Origin: Octopus sinensis | Lineage: Eukaryota | Assembly: GCF_006345805.1 (NCBI RefSeq) | Contig: NC_042998.1 | Coordinates: 7,998,001-8,062,000 of the forward strand | Reading direction: 5' to 3' | DNA length: 64,000 nt | Shown: one piece after another, positions 1,361 through 63,389 of the stretch | Layout: each line of letters starts with the position of its first letter | Position numbering within the stretch: position 1 is the stretch's first letter | The notes under the pieces: generated by a model | Databases searched by the model: none | What the model was told of the DNA's origin: nothing | What the model saw: only the letters and a program-made list of their open reading frames with translations | Program-made: the position numbers and the translations under genes

Positions 1361-2149
1361 GAATACATACATACATACATACATACATACATACATACAT
1401 ACATACATACATACATACATAGAAAAAGAAATCAACCAACTATCTCGCTTATTACAAATGCAATCTGTAAGTGGAACAGTAAAAATATACGTGACTTTTC
1501 TCAAGTTTAAAATGTGACAGTGTTTTTATTATCAACGTGCATATCTACATGCATATCTACATACATATATGCATACATACATATAAATGTGTACATATAC
1601 GTCTACACACACACAAATACACGCACGAATACATATATATTTATAATTGTACGTATACATATATAGATATATATGTATGTATACATACATACACATATAC
1701 ATCACACAGACACATATGTATATGAGAGTGTGTGTGGTGTATGTATGTTTGCGTACTGTTATGTTTTACCTACTTAAGAACATTGATAAAACACAGAGAT
1801 AAATCAATATAGAATACTGCACCGCTTACCATATGTACAACACACAACGGAGAAATTGTGCAGTAAGAGCATATTAACTCTGAAGCATATTAATACTGCT
1901 TGTCATAATCAAGTTCCTTCCCGTGTCTTAGAGGCTCATATTACCTGTTTCAAAATTTCTGTGGCGTAGGAATATCTCCCAGCCCCGTCACAGCATCACT
2001 CAATTTTTAGCACCTGAGTGGACCTAGGCAAAGTGAAATGAAGTGTTTTCCTTTGGCCGATCCAGCAATCGCAAAACAATCATACGATTATGATTTGAAC
2101 ACCCTAACCACTAAGCCGTGCGCCACCGGTCAAAATTTAGAGGAAGGAG

Positions 2150-3227
2150 ATTTTTTTCCTAAAGTACTACAGGAATTTTAAAATGCAGTCGAAGCGATAA
2201 AAAAGTGTAGACGAGAGTGACTTAACATCACTCGAATTAGAGATATGTTTGAAGCAAATGGAACTGTTCAGAATATCTACAAGAAATGTTCCAGAAGACT
2301 GTGGACATGGACGAACCCAGAAAGTGAGAAAAGGTACTAGAAACGTATTGCCCGAGACGATGAAAATCTGAGCGGCAAGCGAATCGTAAGATGGTAATTT
2401 CAAAATCAATTGTCCATTGCATTTCGATGTGTTGTCATGGGGAAAATTTGCATTCATGGAATAGTCCATGCCCTCAGTGCATTCAAAGAATAGTCCATGC
2501 ACTCGGAGAAAAAGTGTGGAGTTTGCGAATGGTATTTGACAAGATGTGTACAAAATGGTCACTTTCCAAAAGACATGTAAAAAAATGGCTTAATTAACCG
2601 CCACAGTTGCACCTACTGCGGACATGAGAATTTGCATGTGAGGAAGGAACGTCATGTTACTGTATCACGGTTAATTAATTAAAGCGATTAATTGGACCGT
2701 TCTGTTTTGATAGTACTGTGACTCATCCCATTCACTTGAACTTGCTGCGACAATTTGTCCTGTCAAGCATTCAAAGACACTTTGAAGATGTGGAGTTTTA
2801 TTTCAAGCTAAATGAAACATCCCAACACTACCATACTTTTACCGAAATGGTAGATTGAATGAAGAGATTCACTAGAATACCATCAGCATTCACCAAACCT
2901 CACGCCAATAGATTTTATTTAATCGTGTATAATTTAAAGAAGCATTTCACGGTACAAAACCGGCCACAGTCGACGAATTGAGCACAGCCGCTAAACGGGG
3001 ACGCACATAAATACCGAACTAAATGTTTTCTTGATGACTGCGATTCCACCGTTTCGGGTTATCAGCAGCGCCTGGACCAGAAGGGCCATCTGTTTGAAAG
3101 CAGGCTTTCATGGAATATTTTCATTCTTTATGTAAATTCTATTAATTTTTGAAAATGAAATGTATTTTAATAAACGCTGCTTGTATAATCATTCATTGTT
3201 TGTATACATCTTTTTGAGACACCCTGT
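2150..3227 (+). mobile_element. decayed Tc1/mariner transposon
   Basis: right TIR CTTTTTGAGACACCCTG followed by TA; broken transposase-like frames ending in a GHLFE-like motif near 3085; left boundary uncertain. Confidence 0.5.
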
Positions 3228-4194
3228 ATGTATGTATGTATGTATGTATGTATGTATGTATGTATGTATGTTTGTATGTATGTATGTATGTATGCATGTA
3301 TGTACGTATATATAGTAAATACTTCAAAGTATTCGAAAGTTTGTTAAACATCAGGAAACTGTATATGGAATTTCAATTTGTTCAATACTTATTTTTTTAA
3401 GTAATTAAGTAATTAAAAGAGTCTTTTAGCTTAAGAATTCTATGAAATCTTCTTTCCTATCCGGATTACAGCACTTTTGCCATATTTTCTATATAAGAAA
3501 TATTGGGTACCAGGTTTTTAAAAAAACTTACATATTAGTTACATAAACAGGATATTATAAACGACGCATATAGCATTACCATTTAAAATTTTGAGATGAT
3601 GTACAAATTTTCGAATTGTTTATGATGCCGTTAGGTATCTCTGTATATCATGCATGTAAAAATAATTTAAGGCCAGTCTAATTTATTTCAAATGAATGCA
3701 CCTTTAAAGACAGCTCCTATCATTAATTGATTCTTCTTCCACGAAGAATCAGACTACTATATTTGTGTTACCAAATTGCATTTTCAATGACCGAGTCTTT
3801 ATTTTCATTTAAAGTAGAGGTAAATTTGAACTCTTCATGTGCCAGAGGTGGTCAAACACTATTCACAGTCCAGATGTGATTCTTTGACAATTAATATGCA
3901 GCATTAAAAAAAATTGCAGTTAATATAAATGGAAAATAATGAAAACATTCAAGCTTTATCAGATAAATTAACACGATTGCTTGATAATTTTCTCGCTAGA
4001 TCGGATGGCCTGCGGAAGCTAATCTCTTTTTTCGCCTGTCATGTAAATCCATTCTTCGTTCGCAGGGTCAATAGCAGTTCTCCAAATCTCAAATCTCTGA
4101 TTGCAGAATCATCTACTGCAGAAATGGAGCTATTGGAATTATTAAATGGTCTACGTAAAAGTTGATCCACAAATCTAGCTCTACGACTAAGTTC

Positions 4195-6310: not shown

Positions 6311-8587
6311 GACATTTTCATATCGAGAACAAATTTTCTTTTCAATTATGCAATTTGTACTGGTATTCTGTTCCGAGAAATAGCGATTTTAAATTATTTA
6401 CCTTCAAATTCAGCTCAAGACGTAAAGATTTAATCGGTTATTTTATGTCCAAACATTCACATCCTGTTGGTTGAGGAAATTATGCAAGATGAAAGCCGAA
6501 TAAATTTTTGAATGTACAAAATAGTATAATATGATCATATGAATAAACGATGAAATTGTTCAGCTGGCATGTAAGTTTATGTAATATATTCCTGCATTAA
6601 TGTAAAGAATCATGAGAGGTTCTTCTTTTGGCGGAGGATATTACTAATGTCTCCTATCTGGGCTATATTGAATACATTTGCCAATGCTCGCCGTAGGGCT
6701 GTGGTGAGTTAAATCTCAATGTTGTTTGTTTAGACATTTTTCTTTCATATTTTTACGAATTTCAGTCATTGAGCTGTAGATTTGCTGGAATATTTCGTTC
6801 GAGTTTTATTTTTTTCTCTTATCGATCACAACAACTTTATTACTTATTATTTTCTGGTACTAATTTCATCGTTTGGTTCAACAACAGTTTTGTTTTACCC
6901 GGTAGCTATGTGTCAAACTTATAAAGACACAAACACGCATACATACAAGGATACAAACAAACACGAAGATCTCCTGGAATGTTTTAATCTATCAGAGTCT
7001 AGTGGCAAAGCATTGAACACTCTGGCACAATAGAAGACACTTACCCAGAGATGGTCATGTCAGGCACCAGGTAATGTGATATCAGCAAATGTTACAAACC
7101 CAAATAAATGCTGAAAGCATGTTTCATTGATATATGTGTTAATTAGACTGTTCAATGTTACATTTCCGTGTGTGTGTGTGTGTGTGTATGTGTGTGTGTG
7201 TCTGTGTGTAGAAAATACCATGGCTAACCGTCTATAATCGGTGTTGCTTACCACACATAGAGACTGAACGCCGGGGCATATGGTTGCGAAACAGACCTCT
7301 TAACCACACAGCCATGCCTGTTCTCTGTAGAGATTGATTAACTGTGGTCTACCATAAACGCTAATTTTCTTTAGAACTTTAAGCATGAAAGAGAAACATT
7401 CAATTGAGGTCGTGAACGTTTCTCGTCAACTATCATTAAAATCACATTAACCATTTTATATACGCTTCTCTATTGTCTAGTTGATCTTTTTTATCCAACC
7501 ACTTAGGAAGCAAGACGGCTTTCGTATTTTTACAAGTTGCTTTCTCTATGAAATGAAAATATTTCTGAGTTCTGGTGACTATTTTATGATAATAATTATT
7601 ATATCAAATACATTAGTTCATATGAATCTGTATATACATCTCTGTACTTATGGCTTTTTTCCATCCACTGTTAAGAAAGAAGATTAAAAAGCATTTCTGA
7701 ATTCCTTTAGAGAATACAGTGACAAAAAATATAAGAAATAGAAGTAATTCAAGATGAATATGTTTTGTATGAATCTTTCTTTATTTCTCCATTAGTTATC
7801 TATAAACAGAAAAGTGATACTCAAGTTCAAAACTAAGTGAACCCCCAAACCGCAAAACTCCCCTTTATATTATGAGCTTTCAAAATTAAATTAATTACAA
7901 TTTGACGTGTATAATGTATTTATTACACATATATTTCCACATTTCTGGATGTATATAAAAACGACCTAACGCCTACACACTTAGCCAAACGTTTAAATAT
8001 GGTTTTATTTGAGCTATAATTTATTTGGGTAAGATGTGATAAGTCGTATCCGTGTTTGTTCAACAATAAGCTAAACTAATTATTTGTTGGACTGGGTCGA
8101 CAGTGCTTGCAATCATCCTAAATTAATATTCCATATCTATCCATTATAACTGAAATGCAATATTCCTTTCTTAAACTCTGTTTCTTGAATTTCAAGCAGG
8201 ATTTACCGAGACAGAATCTGGGGTTTTCCTAATAACTTCAATACGTTTACTACACAGAATAATATGTAAATAATAGAATATGCATGGAATATTTGCAAAG
8301 TTTAATGTATAAACTATATGAATATGAATGAAATGAGCGAGGTTATGATAGCTATCAAGAAGATTATTTTACCTTCCCCAATCATCTTTGGAATGTGCTT
8401 TTCGTGAAAGATCGTGTTTTCTTTGATATTTTTCAGATGATGTCTTACAAAGTAACAAGAATATAAAACCTACTGAAAGCGCAGAAATGACAGAACTTTT
8501 CAGATTTTTCGCATTTTGTTCGAATGTAACAGTTACACGTTTCTTATTTTTCCGACACGAAATTTTAGTTTGAAATACATAAACATA

Positions 8588-9455: not shown

Positions 9456-10221
9456 CTGACTTTGCTGACGACATCGCTCTTATCAGTGATTCTCTCTCCA
9501 ATGCCCAGTCTCTTTTACAATCTCTTGAACAAGCCTCAAATTGTGAAGGTCTTTACCTCAATGAGGCCAAAACTGAATACATAAACAAGTGCCTGTCCAA
9601 CAGTGATTGCATCATCCACACTCTCAACAGTGCACCTTTAAATATGGTTTCTGATTACAAATATCTTGGGTCATACATATCATCATCTGGAAAAGACTTT
9701 CTAACTAGAAAGGGTATGGCCTGGTCAGCCTGTAATGACATGCATAAGATCTGGTCATCAAATCTAAGTAGAGACTTCAAACTTGAAATATTCAAAGCCA
9801 CAGTCGAACCAATTCTACTATATGGCTCAGAAACCTGGACGTTATCAAAGAAGCTTGAGAGGCGGTTGGATGGAACCTACACTCGCCTCCTTATGAGAGC
9901 TCAAAATCTCTCGTGGAAGCGCCATCCAACCAAAATGCAAATATATGGAAAATTACCACCTGTGTCATCTCTTGTGAAAGGTAGGAGAGTCCAGTTTGCT
10001 GGACATTGTTGTAGAGCTGAAAAAGAAGTAATTTCTACTCTTCTCCTCTGGAAGCCATCTACGCGCAATACCAGAAGGCGCACACTCTCCTACCCTGATG
10101 TAATCTCCAGGGATACAGGCATCCAGCAACAGGACCTCCGTAATGCTATGATGGACCGTGAAGTCTGGCGTAACATAGTAAATTCCATTGTCTCGACCAC
10201 GGTCGAACAATGATGATGATG
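9456..10221 (+). mobile_element. 5'-truncated RTE-clade LINE (RT C-terminus)
   Basis: FADDIALIS, YKYLGS, LLYGSETWTL, RRVQFAGH motifs; stop codon runs into a (GAT)n tail; TSD ATATATACGCA at 9445-9455 and 10222-10232. The N-terminal 43 aa of ORF 9323 are flank and microsatellite. Confidence 0.9.
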
Positions 10222-50979: not shown

Positions 50980-52750
50980 TAAATAAATCCTCTTTAGAAC
51001 GAACAAGGAAAGATCTACACAAATTCTTCTTTAGCCTCAACATATCTATTACTTTTGAAAATTCCCACAAAACCACTAATTTTTTTAGATGTAAGTTTGA
51101 ACTTAGAAACCTCTCAATACACCCCATATCACAAACCTACCAAGTACCTTAAGTACTTGAACATTAATTCCAATCACCACAAATCCACCTTTGATGCTAT
51201 AGTTAAAGGTATCTCAATTCGTATATCTGACCTTTCATCCACTGAGGATATATTTGATAACCACACACCATATTACAACCAAGCGCTCGCTGCCAGCGGC
51301 TTCTCCCAATAAATAAGATACATCCCTAATACTAGGCTCAAGCAACATATATCTCAAATCATGTCAACGGCATGCCAACCATCCGAATCACAACAGACCA
51401 CCCATACACTATACTAGAACCCCAGGAGAACTCAGATTAAGACAACTTAGACCCCCACACGCACACATATAACACTAGGTCAAAAGCTAAAACAGCTAAA
51501 AATAACGGCCATATTATCCCCCTCTAACTTCGAAAAATATAGAAAACACTACCTTTAAGCAACCAAAGAAGTGATGGACGCTCTATTCTATGCACTTCGC
51601 TTCTCATTAAACGTTAAGAACTTAGCTAAATCCTTATTAAATATGCTGCACTTCAACTTGCCTCGTCGACATAAACATTATTCTTTCTTAAAGCTATCCT
51701 ACTCCTCCCTGCCCAACTTTGAGTCTATCATATCAGCTTCTAATAAACGAAAACTTATTATCAAACTTACAGTGTAATAACTCTGAAGACACGAACGCCC
51801 AGCATATATATAGCTCCAATATCGAACCCTATATTTTAGAACACACTACCATTTCCCACTAACACTAACCAGAATACTACTACTACAACTTCCACCACTA
51901 TTACAGGTAGGATGTATAACAACAACGATAGAAATAGCAATGAAAATAGTACTAATAATAACATAGACCATTCTACCCCTATCTCTAACCGCTCCTCTGA
52001 CAGTATTACTCCCTTCATTCCTAAGAATAATCCCCAAAATCCACTACCCTGTAACTGCCGTCTTGGGATCATCTGCCCTCTACAAACTCATTGCAGAAGG
52101 TCTAATGTAATATATAAGTGCACCGTCCTCAACACGTTACACAATTCTACAACTATATATATATAGGATCAACTATGATTTTTAAACAACGATACGCTGT
52201 GCATTTCAATTCTTTTAGATACAAGAAACAGTAAATCCACACAACACTCACCAGTTACATACATCATCTCAAAAATAGAAATATTCCCTACATCTAGCTG
52301 TGGTCATTAATAGATTCAGGGCTTCCATACAAAGGTTAACGCTCAGCCTGTAAGCTATATCTAAAAAGAGGCATTCCACACATTAAAACAAAATCCCCTT
52401 AATGCCATTCTAAAATATCACCCGACCTTACACACCTCACACATATTCATTACTTACATTCTTATCTCTTCCTACCTACACCTACTCCTCTCCCATCCCC
52501 CTCATAATATCTTGACCACTAACTCTCTCTTTTTCTCTTTTACTCTTTTACTTGTTTCAGTCATTTGACTGCGGCCATGCTGGAGCACCGCCTTTAGTCG
52601 GGCAAATCGACCCCGGGACTTATTGTTTGTAAGCCCAGTACTTATTCTATTGGTCTCTTTTTGCCGAACCGCTAAGTGACGGGGACGTAAACACACCAGC
52701 ATCGGTCGTCAAGCAATGCTAGGGGGACAAACACAGACACACAAACACAT

Positions 52751-57243: not shown

Positions 57244-57321
<78 letters not shown>

Positions 57322-57531
57322 AAATAGAAAGATGAATAATCTTGTAGTAGATTAATCAACAGTTTAACCGATACCTTAGTAGCAAAAATCACAGCAGTAA
57401 ACAGCACGGTTGGAGGTACAACCATCTGGCGTTGCAACCGTGCGTTGGTGCGGATAATTGAAATTAAAACATTATTGGTGAATTGAAGAAATGGAGCTGA
57501 ACGCAGATTGAACAGAAATCGTTTTATTTCA

Positions 57532-57611
57532 TTCTACACGTGTTTCGAAAGGCACAAATTACCAAAATCCGATTGAATAATGGGACCATATTGTGTCTTT
57601 CTCTTCAGGAA
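57532..57611 (-). ncRNA. type I hammerhead ribozyme, intact core
   Basis: mirror copy of 59863-59942. Confidence 0.8.
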
Positions 57612-58219
57612 GAAAAAAGGAAATCCGTTGGAAAAACAAAAACAGAACAGAGGCGGAGCAAAAAACAAATCGAACTGTGCTCCTAAGAGCCCATGGCGAA
57701 ACTGTTTATCAGTGTATGTTGAGAACCGGTGGCTGAAGAATTCAACGGGTCAGGCATCGGTCAATCATGTGGGTGAGGGTGTATAGATGTTCTTTGTGAC
57801 CGAGAATAAAGATCTGACTATTTAAAGAATATTGGATGTTTTATAAGTGCGAGAAAAAATCTACTTAGAGACGTGTGTGTGTGTATACTGTTCTATATAT
57901 GTGTGTGTTGGCGTAGGGGTAGAAAACATTTTTTGTGTACGTGTGTGCGTTTGATCGTTCGGCTGTCAGTGGCTACTGCCGTGATAACCGTTGGGTGGCA
58001 GAAAGAAAAAAATAAAAAAATTATATATATATATTATGTTTTATGTGTGTGTGTGTTCATCTAAGCCTACCTTGTCAAGGAAACCCCCCGCTGTGAAAAA
58101 ACCAAGCCCCGTTTGTCTTACAGGAGTAATTCCCCTTGCAGTGGTCAATCGTAGATATCTTAAAGGCTATTTCAGAATTTGTTACCAAGGGCTATGGGTG
58201 CCGGTATTATTTATAAACG

Positions 58220-58943
58220 CTATTTAAAGGCCAGATAAGTGTAACGCCGCCAATGGGGGCATCGAAAAGCCGACTGTAAGAGCCCGTTTACCATCCGGCC
58301 TCTGGCAAACAAAATATGGAAGAGTTCGGAGACACAAAGGTTGCACTGTCTTCTGCCCCTATCAAATGGGAGGGCCACCGACAAAATTGACCATTCCAGC
58401 CTATAGCTTAAGTTCGCATCCTTCAGTCGCCATATTAGCTTACTGAGTCCCGTGGTCTGGCGCTTGTTCACGTCCCGAAAAGTTGCGTAATGGTTGGAGA
58501 CACGCAAAGACAATCTTGAGGATGTTGCCCCTACATAAGTGAAGGCATCTGAGTCCGTGTAAACCTTGCATTGGTAGACGGCGTTTTTGATCTTGGAGTT
58601 CGCCGACGTGAATCTTAATCTGCTAGGATTGGTTTCTGAAATTAGAACTGCGTTCCTGTCACTATATTCGTTCCGAGACCTGCAGCCGCTTACTACTCTA
58701 TTTTCCACTACGTCACTATGAACTATAGGAATAACCCCTGATTCTCCACTATCTATCAGAGTGCTGTCATTGCTACTGCCCGTGGTACTGCTATTGCGGG
58801 AAATGATGCTCGGGATGCTAATGGGGCTCTCTACCCTACTCCCATTGTTACCGTCAACCACAACACCCCTATTTATAACTATACCCCTAGTGGGTACTCC
58901 CTGGCTGGAGCTGAGATTATGTGTCACTGTACTGGCTCTGTAC
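58220..58943 (-). CDS. Penelope-like GIY-YIG endonuclease domain, 5'-truncated with an open frame
   Basis: NAVYQCKV...TYVGATS...R.SNH..TF...TGLSKLIWRLK...WSIL...CNLCVSE...CPH; sequence upstream of 58943 is captured flank. Confidence 0.85.
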
Positions 58944-59131
58944 TTCAGTTGCTTTTGGGACATCCTATAAGATATTGATTTCGTAGACGGAAACTGAAAG
59001 AAGGCTATCGTATATATCTGTATATTTGTGTGTGTGTGTGTGTGAGTGTGTGAGTGTGTGTGTGTGTTTGTACCCCCACCGTCGCTTGACAACCGATGTT
59101 GCTGTGTTTGCGTCCCCGTAACTTAGTGGTT
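58944..59131. repeat. 188-bp exact inverted copy of 60283-60470
   Basis: base-by-base reverse complement including the microsatellite and a SINE/Tc1 junction. Confidence 0.92.
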
Positions 59132-59862
59132 TGAGATTATGTGTCACTGTACTTCCATATTTTGTTTGCCAGAGGCCGGATGGTAAACGGGCTCTTACAG
59201 TCGGCTTTTCGATGCCCCCATTGGCGGCGTTACACTTATCTGGCCTTTAAATAGCGTTTATAAATAATACCGGCACCCATAGCCCTTGGTAACAAATTCT
59301 GAAATAGCCTTTAAGATATCTACGATTGACCACTGCAAGGGGAATTACTCCTGTAAGACAAACGGGGCTTGGTTTTTTCACAGCGGGGGGTTTCCTTGAC
59401 AAGGTAGGCTTAGATGAACACACACACACATAAAACATAATATATATATATAATTTTTTTATTTTTTTCTTTCTGCCACCCAACGGTTATCACGGCAGTA
59501 GCTACTGACAGCCGAACGATCAAACGCACACACGTACACAAAAATGTTTTCTACCCCTACGCCAACACACACATATATAGAACAGTATACACACACACAC
59601 GTCTCTAAGTAGATTTTTTCTCGCCACTTATAAAACATCCAATATTCTTTAAATAGTCAGATCTTTATTCTCGGTCACAAAGAACATCTATACACCCTCA
59701 CCCACATGATTGACCGATGCCTGACCCGTTGAATTCTTCAGCCACCGGTTCTCAACATACACTGATAAACAGTTTCGCCATGGGCTCTTAGGAGCACAGT
59801 TCGATTTGTTTTTTGCTCCGCCTCTGTTCTGTTTTTGTTTTTCCAACGGATTTCCTTTTTTC

Positions 59863-59942
59863 TTCCTGAAGAGAAAGACACAATATGGTCCCATTATTCA
59901 ATCGGATTTTGGTAATTTGTGCCTTTCGAAACACGTGTAGAA
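59863..59942 (+). ncRNA. type I hammerhead ribozyme, intact core
   Basis: TTC-CTGAAGA-GAAAGACACAA...TTGTGCCTTTC-GAAA-CACGTG-TA-GAA; GUA triplet, palindromic stem III. Confidence 0.8.
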
Positions 59943-60010
59943 TGAAATAAAACGATTTCTGTTCAATCTGCGTTCAGCTCCATTTCTTCAATTCACCAAT
60001 AATGTTATAT

Positions 60011-60097
<87 letters not shown>

Positions 60098-60159
60098 AAT
60101 ATATATACTAACAGAGATACCGGTGTTGCTCGGGATTAAAATGTCACAGTTTGGTTTAT

Positions 60160-60440
60160 TGTTCTATTTGTTTCAGTCATGTGATTGCGGCCATGCTAGA
60201 GCACCGCTTTTAGTCTAACAAATCGACCCCAGAAAGTATTCATTGTAAGCCTAGTACTTATTCTATCAGTGTGTTTTTACCGAACCACTAAGTTACGGGG
60301 ACGCAAACACAGCAACATCGGTTGTCAAGCGACGGTGGGGGTACAAACACACACACACACTCACACACTCACACACACACACACACAAATATACAGATAT
60401 ATACGATAGCCTTCTTTCAGTTTCCGTCTACGAAATCAAT
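60160..60440 (-). mobile_element. SINE family A, interrupted by a Tc1-like element
   Basis: TGTTTCAGTCAT...GCGGCCATGC, CTTCTTTCAGTTTCCGTCTA. Confidence 0.8.
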
Positions 60441-60446
60441 ATCTTA

Positions 60447-61510
60447 TAGGATGTCCCAAAAGCAACTGAAAGGTTTCAATTTTTAATAACTTCCTTAACT
60501 CTACAAATATATGGTTGGAACTTTGATACACTATACAATAACATAACGGAAATTAATATGCACAAGTCACACTTTGCAACACCATTACATCACATATGAA
60601 AAATTACAATGCTTAAATGGCTTAAATGGCGGCCATGTTCGGCTTAAAAAGCCCATGCCCTTTCCAAAATTTTCACCATAACACCATCAAGAGTTTCAGA
60701 CACCACTTCTCTGATTTCTCCGTTGATGTTCTCCTTTAGTTGCACCAGGGCCTCCGGTTTGTTGACGTGAGCCCTCTCTTTCAGGTATCCATGACTGAGA
60801 CCTTGTTGCGCCCGGCCATTCAAAATGGACCTCACACATGGTTCCAGCAAGATGGGGCAACTGCTCATACTGCAAGGGAAACAATGCAATTGCTACGGCA
60901 GTGCTTTGGAGAGAACAATCTCCCGCTACGGCAATGTCAGCTGGCCTTTACGTTCCCCAGCCTTGACTATCCTAGATTTTTTTGTCTTGTGGGGATTCCT
61001 GAAAGAGAGAACATCTTGCGAACACTTGAGGGTGTTATGGTGAAGTTTTGGGAAGAGCACGGGTGTACGAAGCCGAAAATGTCTGCCTTTTTCAGCTTCA
61101 CACACCTGTGCTCTTTCCAAGACTTGCACCATAACACCCTCAAGAGTTTCAGACCCCACTTCTTTGATTTCTCTATTGATGTTCTCATTCACTTCCACCA
61201 GGGTCTCCTGTTTGTTAACGTAAACCCTTTCTGGTGGAAGTGAATGAGAACATCAATAGAGAAATCAAAGAAGTGGGGTCTGAAACTCTTGAGGGTGTTA
61301 TGGTGCAAGTTTTGGGAAGAGCACGGGTGTGCGAAGCCGAAAATGACTGCCATTTAAGCGATGTCAATTTTCATATGCGATGCAGTAGTGTTGCAAAATA
61401 GGATTTGCGCCTATTAATTTCCATTATGTCCTTTATATTATAACAAGCTTTCATACATTTAAGGAAGTTATAAAATTTGAAACCCATCAGTAACATTGGG
61501 GGCGCCCTCT
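60447..61510. mobile_element. rearranged fold-back Tc1/mariner remnant (approximately DD41D-like)
   Basis: imperfect inverted ends; WFQQDGATAHTA...WPLRSPALTILDFF.LWGFLKE; the 3' end of the transposase is present in both orientations. Confidence 0.75.
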
Positions 61511-63169: not shown

Positions 63170-63389
63170 GTGGACATTGTTGTAGAGCTGAAAACGAAGC
63201 AATTTCTACTCTTCTCCTCTGGAAGCCATCTACTCGCAATACCAGAGGGCACACACTCTCCTACCCTGATGTAATCTCCAGGGATACAGGCATCCAGCAA
63301 CAGGACCTCCGTAATGCTATGATGGACCGTGAAGTCTTGCGTAGCATGGTAAATTCCATTGTTTCGACCACAGTCGAACAATGATGATT
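63170..63389 (+). mobile_element. short 3' fragment of the RTE at 9456
   Basis: near-identical to 10000-10220, ends CAATGATGAT. Confidence 0.9.

Follow-up and report, generated by a model that had tools for sequence, protein, structure and literature searches.

In EN+ Penelope-like elements (PLEs), inverted copies and tails confined to one side of the insertion are standard (PMC8557442; PMC3846280). The origin of the inverted copy and of the one-sided tail has been named as an open question (PMC8557442), and one account derives the inversion from self-priming on an antisense template (PMC3846280). In vitro, the protein of an anole PLE cuts both target strands and extends them; its two start sites lie at the borders of the tail and show no strand preference (PMC11167929).

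Extra sequence at insertion junctions is known from LINEs. For LINE-1 (L1) the reports give fold-backs of 52-220 bp in 4 of ~1,250 somatic insertions (PMC10191854), three templated and three inverted cases (PMC11702581), and templated inserts of <250 bp, within 15 bp of the site, in 22 of 3,598 insertions (10.1101/2024.08.27.596794). In zebrafish LINEs, extra nucleotides at the 5' end are derived from the flanks (PMC4245944). End-joining by POLQ also leaves templated inserts, with ~85% of them primed no further than 10 bp from the break; these may arise through reiterated rounds on one flank or, as reverse complements, through snap-back, and they are mostly <25 nt long with about one error in 30 (PMC5068794). 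Our literature search, which covered few subscription papers, found no report of a flank-copy filler in a Penelope element and no explicit model that assigns one start site to each strand, and the available portions of two further sources (10.64898/2026.07.22.740005; PMC13282606) contain nothing on junctions.

Here we describe a composite Penelope-like junction in a 64,000-nucleotide stretch of the Octopus sinensis genome (contig NC_042998.1, positions 7,998,001 to 8,062,000), referred to as the window, and compare it with 200 other loci of the same family.

The octopus family and the window locus

A search with 58330-58943 of the window returned 1102 candidates, and the identity of 99-100% in the 40 that were scored indicates that the family is young. 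The long copy L130 has a monomer of 3639 nt with two fixed family 3' ends 146 nt apart, and an 867-aa frame with reverse transcriptase (RT) and C-terminal GIY-YIG motifs (YRDD, VYxC..YVG). In three copies (L130, L211 and L220) the sequence goes on past the monomer start with a second 3' copy, giving a pLTR or partial tandem structure. The Atlas neighbours (0.95-0.98) include some with GIY-YIG in 26-50% of members and RVT_1 in 18%, while Pfam scans and PDB sequences gave nothing relevant. The family resembles described EN+ PLEs in its ORF with RT and C-terminal GIY-YIG, its pLTR partial tandems, its predicted hammerhead motif and its (TA)n target, as well as in the head-to-head inverted copy with a tail on one end (PMC8557442; PMC3846280); its tail is longer, at 146 nt compared to 30-40 in the described elements.

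The traits given for the Hydra clade are DKT in place of DKG, no CCHH, CxxC and CxH around a conserved E, a (TA)n target, RWK, and a CxCX5C linker (PMC8557442). The octopus family has SDKT, CNLC..E and CPH, no CCHH (there is one Cys only in its GIY-YIG core), and TA on both sides of the insertion, and the DKT, YRDD and CxxC motifs are common to the L130 ORF and 16 homologues at 29-44%. At the RWK position it has RIRWL (RWK is found in 4 and RWR in 2 of the 16 homologues), and the CxCX5C linker before the endonuclease, present in 10 of the 16 homologues, is missing from the L130 ORF. Since this linker is lacking, we have filed the family, on its motif content, as a Hydra-like EN+ Penelope and not as a full member of the Hydra clade. 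The window also contains older related Penelope-like fragments at 51082-51324 (48% aa) and 51840-52357 (30% aa), and the frame 51840-52166 of the latter has the CxCX5C linker, unlike the young family.

Each arm of the window insertion carries a predicted type I hammerhead (Table 1). In the right arm its parts would be a core at 59866-59872, a long stem II at 59873-59927, GAAA at 59928-59931 and a palindromic 6-nt stem III, with a predicted cut after 59939. Stem II folds at -13 kcal/mol and stem I is weak, at -2.0. An Rfam search (E<=1) gave no hammerhead match, returning only sub-threshold miRNA-like matches on repeats.

Other features of the family were observed in passing. At L130:5187-7784, residues ~600-745 form a long Ser/Asn-rich low-complexity stretch between RT and endonuclease that has no counterpart in the 16 homologues and is reminiscent of the N-rich inserts in rotifer Penelopes (PMC3846280). 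There are 5'-truncation hot spots at family positions 3250-3259 (18 of 266 arm ends) and 3550-3559 (11 of 266), the first of which may mark where transcripts start within the pLTR, or else a hairpin in the RNA.

Table 1. Features of the window locus (window coordinates; family positions are those of the L130 monomer).
Feature	Position	Strand	Evidence and remarks
(TA)n target tract, left of insertion	57254..57318	.	Sequence; TA-rich DNA on to ~57197
Left tailed Penelope-like arm, 5'-truncated	57319..58939	-	99% to family; equals L130 monomer (3639 nt) positions 2018-3639
146-nt tail between the two fixed family 3' ends	57319..57464	-	Left arm only
Hammerhead-like motif, left arm	57524..57622	-	Mirror of 59852-59950; arm identity and motif
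Family ORF remnant, residues 629-867, including C-terminal GIY-YIG endonuclease	58223..58939	-	tblastn 98.7%, alignment
Template of 21/22-nt re-copy	58912..58933	+	58927-58933 is the likely template of the 4-nt piece too
Four bases, neither family nor flank	58940..58943	+	Family copy comparison
188-nt exact inverted flank copy	58944..59131	-	Source 60283-60470
21-nt direct re-copy of 58912-58932	59132..59152	+	2-nt overlap (59152-59153) with right arm; 0 with flank copy
Right inverted arm, tailless	59152..60006	+	Family positions 2635-3490; alignment to 60009 via TA-shared bases
Predicted type I hammerhead, right arm	59852..59950	+	Motif and folds
(TA)n target tract, right of insertion	60007..60108	.	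Sequence
Old SINE-like repeat copy	60124..60437	.	~75-82% to other window copies
Source of 188-nt insert	60283..60470	+	SINE part with CA tract, then join to next repeat; genome-unique
Decayed element, terminal inverted repeats 75%, broken DDE-like frame	60465..61491	.	Repeats 60465-60748 / 61231-61491

A copy of neighbouring DNA at the central join

The two arms of the window copy (57465-58322 and 59152-60009) are 99.5% complementary and differ by one substitution and two homopolymer indels. What lies between them had been described in a reading of the sequence alone as an exact inverted copy of DNA 277-464 bp outside the element, followed by a 21-bp re-copy of the element itself. Both pieces were confirmed. 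The flank copy matches its source at 188 of 188 bases, with the match extending no further on either side, and the given distance is correct for an element end at 60006, the source starting 174 nt past the TA tract. The re-copy of 58912-58932 is present at 59132-59152; the exact repeat is 22 nt long (58912-58933 again at 59132-59153), its final CT being also the first two bases of the inverted arm, so that it amounts to 21 nt plus one shared base. The junction of re-copy and arm occurs once in the genome.

The 188 nt span the join of an old SINE-like repeat to its neighbour. A 36-nt pattern across this join has two matches (<=2 mismatches) in the 2.72 Gb genome, namely the source and the insert, and comparison of the 188 nt with 209 other loci and the window gave next-best matches of 79-81%, in the SINE part only. 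The uniqueness of the join, together with the low identity of other SINE copies, indicates that the insert was copied from the element's own flank. That the 188 nt might instead be Penelope family sequence shared with other copies, the possibility that the sequence-only reading had set against itself, was ruled out by the copy comparison, the 36-nt genome pattern and the SINE match levels. The same reading called the source a locus-specific SINE/Tc1 junction, which holds for the uniqueness of the join. The Tc1 label is less firm: by inverted repeats of 75% and a QQDGAT motif the decayed element at 60465-61491 is a putative Tc1/mariner copy, and it has no Pfam match. Within it lies a hairpin (61077-61355) with 125-nt arms that are 93% complementary, for which Rfam gave only sub-threshold miRNA-family matches. 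Elsewhere in the window there is a 218-nt direct repeat, 95% identical (63171-63388 and 10000-10217).

One piece of the join had been overlooked. All 29 other aligned family copies diverge from the window sequence after 58939 and not after 58943, and 58940-58943 is thus an additional piece that is not of the family. The bases 58938-58944 repeat 58927-58933, which a random 4-nt insert would do with a probability of 0.029 (simulation), and on this similarity the four bases are likely to be a fourth short templated round. The earlier count of at least three template switches, one of them onto neighbouring chromosomal DNA, is therefore upheld, with three certain and the fourth likely.

Pairs and joins at 200 other loci

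Exact patterns for the two fixed 3' ends with TA gave 377 tailless and 190 tailed matches, and the survey was drawn from the first 100 of each. Set A consists of 99 of the 100 listed tailless places, the remaining one being the window itself; Set B of 80 regions from the tailed list (9 places were already covered, 3 pairs were merged and 8 were left out); and Set C of 21 long copies from the search with 58330-58943, making 200 loci besides the window. Among these listed matches and long copies, 169 of 200 loci have a tailed and a tailless arm arranged head to head. In Set A the partner of the tailless arm is a tailed inverted arm at 90 loci, a tailless arm at one, an inverted internal piece at two and an open tandem at one, with none at five. 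In Set B, 57 tailed arms have a tailless partner, six a very short tailless partner and none a tailed one; a script found no partner for 16, three of which show one by eye, and one was unscored. Set C has 16 pairs and five single arms. One-tailed, one-tailless pairing is thus near-obligate in the octopus family (169 versus 1), unlike in the described EN+ PLEs.

The window junction had been proposed as a snapshot of how inverted Penelope 5' ends form. The survey speaks against this: an inverted arm is what the family normally produces (169 of the 200 other loci), whereas a flank copy was found at one. As the flank copy is absent from nearly all loci with an inverted arm, it does not make that arm, and it is likely to be a rare detour at the joining of two halves and not the step that creates the inverted half. 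The origin of the inverted arm is better explained by the family pattern than by the window junction. Of 133 simple pairs, 65 have a tailless arm whose 5' extent exceeds that of the tailed arm by >30 nt, while only the latter has the tail, which shows that neither arm is a copy of the other. At the window the tailless arm lies wholly inside the span of the tailed arm and rare variants are common to both, making a DNA-copied right arm possible at this locus.

Most surveyed pairs meet in joins with overlaps of 0-5 nt. Inserts are absent from 91 of the 133 simple joins, and 57 of these 91 overlap by >=2 nt, compared to 16% for random joins. With a single reference the figure was 27 of 57, a count that overcalls inserts owing to subfamily variants, while the count that replaced it may slightly overcall overlaps. 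Inserts are of 1-3 nt at 13 joins and of 4-61 nt at 29, and 23 of these 29 have a local match of >=6 nt. The excess of overlaps of >=2 nt and the locally matched inserts constitute an end-joining signature. Some fillers are more elaborate: those at L104:6398-6478, with a 12-mer repeated about five times, and L078:5278-5327 are reiterated, and the join at L219:4975-5138 has two successive jumps to distant element positions.

In 49 of 133 pairs the inner (5') ends of the arms are no more than 30 nt apart, where permutation gives 12 (maximum 24), and for long-long pairs the count is 8 of 22 compared to 1.9. This suggests that the arms are coupled, for example by a common RNA 5' end or through a subclass that folds back, and independent twin priming alone does not account for it. 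We abandoned the idea of a leading and a trailing RT on one RNA: where the tailed arm enters the shared zone, it extends further 5' than its tailless partner in 19 pairs and less far in 26.

The sequence-only reading had also suggested surveying other inverted junctions for inserts from nearby DNA. We scanned the inner ends for flank-matching sequence of >=20 nt that does not belong to the element (at least ~2 kb of flank on the anchored side, low-complexity sequence filtered), which left, after rejections, the window locus and one comparable case, L116. At L116:7119-7272, 46 nt of element sequence that fold back precede an inverted 106-nt copy of the left flank, and the tailless arm follows, with join overlaps of 4, 4 and 2 nt. 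The source lies 384-489 nt outside the element, the copy has two extra GAT units, and a unique 37-mer has two genome occurrences. The build is the mirror image of that at the window and reads alike on the opposite strand. Several candidates were rejected: a 106-nt SINE piece at L172 matches a local copy at 97% and a copy elsewhere at 98%, the matches at L150, L159 and L166 are adjacent or doubled insertions, and L209 holds not a filler but a 418-nt direct repeat pair, which we read as a nested LTR-type insertion. The members of this pair (L209:2584-3000 and 7468-7884) are 99.5% identical, start with TG and abut a short tailed arm.

The unselected rate of inverted flank copies, 1 in 169 pairs, is of the same order as the 0.3-0.6% of LINE-1, and the two systems are alike in that a copy of nearby genomic DNA of <250 bp occurs, rarely, at the 5' junction; the window copy is likely to be of the kind already known from human LINE-1. 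They differ in that L1 templates are usually <=15 bp from, or contiguous with, the site, whereas the octopus sources start 277 nt (384 nt at L116) away, and in that the filler stands between cDNA and target in L1 and between two cDNA ends in the octopus Penelope. For the described EN+ PLEs, the available portions of the sources report palindromes and host spacers but no inverted copy of the adjacent flank at the central join (PMC8557442; PMC3846280).

These comparisons bear on whether the window join is real. An assembly artefact, from a chimeric or folded-back long read or from faulty polishing of repeats, is conceivable in a region composed entirely of repeats, where the homopolymer indels between the arms are typical of consensus error. 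Elsewhere, a whole insertion with its join is doubled in tandem with TA between the units at L141, L152, L159, L166 and L212, which may be duplications through TA tracts or assembly artefacts. A fold-back read would, however, give one mirror point, whereas the window locus has four joins and nested pieces from three places, flanked on either side by normal sequence, and its right arm has a private substitution that is absent from the left; moreover, L116 independently repeats the design and short fillers of graded length run throughout the family. We consider an artefact very improbable. The 21 runs listed consist of assembled contigs; among the contigs listed for four of them (X1, X15, X17, X11), none spans any of the joins and none covers 58945-58964 either, which has the same sequence as the undisputed flank join; the private bases of the copy were unseen in them. 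The composite join is real in the assembly and is a multi-step templated repair scar in an ordinary head-to-head Penelope-like insertion.

Whether the scar dates from the integration was considered next to a later origin, in which a central break in the completed inverted repeat was repaired by templated end-joining, independently of integration. An inverted repeat with 858-nt arms 829 nt apart is a fragile structure, and the insert is 100% identical to its source, whereas the arms have diverged slightly from each other. Yet exact identity is expected regardless, as the 4 private substitutions found over 2476 nt correspond to an expectation of 0.6 differences between the 188 nt and their source (P(0)=0.54). 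A later break would also require resection across the whole right arm and the TA tract (~1.3 kb) to expose the source, and the short templated fillers at 29 of 133 joins, many with arms of 50-400 nt, point to the step that makes the join. We regard a later break as quite improbable. That all switches occurred in one integration event, as had been proposed, is plausible; the exact identity fits the age of the element and would equally fit later repair.

Probable order of copying and a possible two-ended model of integration

Read on the minus strand, the join consists of the right arm, the 21-nt copy of the left arm, the flank copy (60283->60470), a 6-nt copy of the left arm and the left arm itself, with overlaps of 2, 0, 1 and 2 nt at the four joins. 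Both short pieces derived from the left arm begin at the same base (58933), 6 nt from that arm's end. We infer that copying probably ran in this order, from the inverted arm to the ORF, which is opposite to the order proposed earlier.

In the reading that we consider probable, both target strands primed cDNA, and the end of the right-arm cDNA ran through abortive microhomology-primed rounds before joining. The endonuclease would cut both strands of the (TA)n tract, and each 3' end would prime its own cDNA, the left-arm cDNA (plus strand) starting at the tail end and the right-arm cDNA (minus strand) 146 nt further in. Two such cDNAs of the same polarity could be joined by microhomology only. 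The right cDNA end would pair by 2 nt at 58932-58933 (minus strand) and copy 20 more bases, and would then snap back on its own strand in the right flank, made single-stranded by 5' resection over at least ~465 nt, to copy 60283->60470 away from the break. It would next re-prime at 58933 (1 nt), copy 6 nt and anneal by 2 nt at 58938-58939, with fill-in and ligation as the final steps.

Several observations favour this reading. In the minus-strand order every template is a single strand with a 3' end (the left cDNA and, in the right flank, the minus strand), the two pieces copied from the element begin at one common base close to where the left arm ends, much as POLQ inserts prime close to the break, and L116 supplies a mirror-image second locus. 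The tailed/tailless pairing, with arms that do not contain each other, favours two primings, and fits one start site per target strand. The end-joining signature of the surveyed joins and the activity of the anole protein on both target strands also count in its favour. Other observations count against it: the two start sites have no strand preference in vitro, the join at which the snap-back would start (59131/59132) has no microhomology and another has 1 nt, 188 error-free bases are unlike POLQ inserts, and there are two flank-templated cases in total, the window locus included. The close inner ends in 49 of 133 pairs, the position of the right arm of the window copy within the span of its left arm, and the lack of a readable target-site duplication in (TA)n also weigh on this side.

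An order in the opposite direction fits equally well letter for letter. Here the element's RT would extend the left cDNA (plus strand), slip back on its RNA, jump to the plus strand of the right flank (60470->60283), return to the RNA for 21 nt and jump onto the right cDNA. RT jumps need little homology, which suits the joins with 0 and 1 nt, and the templated inserts of L1 have been ascribed to cDNA that leaves its RNA and pairs with nearby DNA (10.1101/2024.08.27.596794). However, this order needs as template, at the window and at L116 alike, the flank strand that is normally resected, with its 5' end at the break; it also requires re-entry onto the RNA, and the two re-copies must stop at 58933 in a template first read to 58939. 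We consider it unlikely.

Returning to the two-primed reading, the enzyme that made the fillers is likely to be the host end-joining machinery with priming of the Pol theta type, perhaps joined over the 188 nt by a polymerase of higher processivity; a possible alternative is the RT of the element itself. The likeness to Pol theta lies in priming by 1-2 nt near the end, in reiterated, overlapping, one-sided inserts and in snap-back inserts, the difference in the 188 exact bases, which are far longer and cleaner than POLQ inserts (PMC5068794). Twin priming of L1 is similar in its cDNAs from both target ends, its microhomology join and its head-to-head inversion (PMC10191854; PMC11702581; 10.1101/2024.08.27.596794). 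In L1 the second primer acts at variable internal sites and the pieces barely overlap, whereas the octopus Penelope has two fixed start sites, separated by 146 nt, and arms that repeat the same sequence for up to 3.5 kb.

As a single locus, the window junction is a repair scar with no sign of function. It offers an initial view of fillers templated by the flank in a Penelope family, where they are about as frequent as in LINE-1; such fillers imply that the flanks are resected and that end-joining of the host type acts at the central join. More is gained from the family survey. The strict tailed/tailless pairing of arms that are not contained in each other connects the two target strands with the two sites at which the anole enzyme starts in vitro, and opens a two-ended model to direct testing. 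In such a model, which we put forward tentatively, Penelope integration may be obligately two-ended: one enzyme complex would prime both strands of the cut target at two fixed RNA sites, one for each strand, and the resulting chromosome break, with cDNAs of the same polarity at its two ends, would be sealed only by host microhomology end-joining on resected DNA. The inverted arm and the one-sided tail would then be the product of every insertion, and the scars at the window and L116 would prove that ~0.5 kb of flank is single-stranded at the time of joining.
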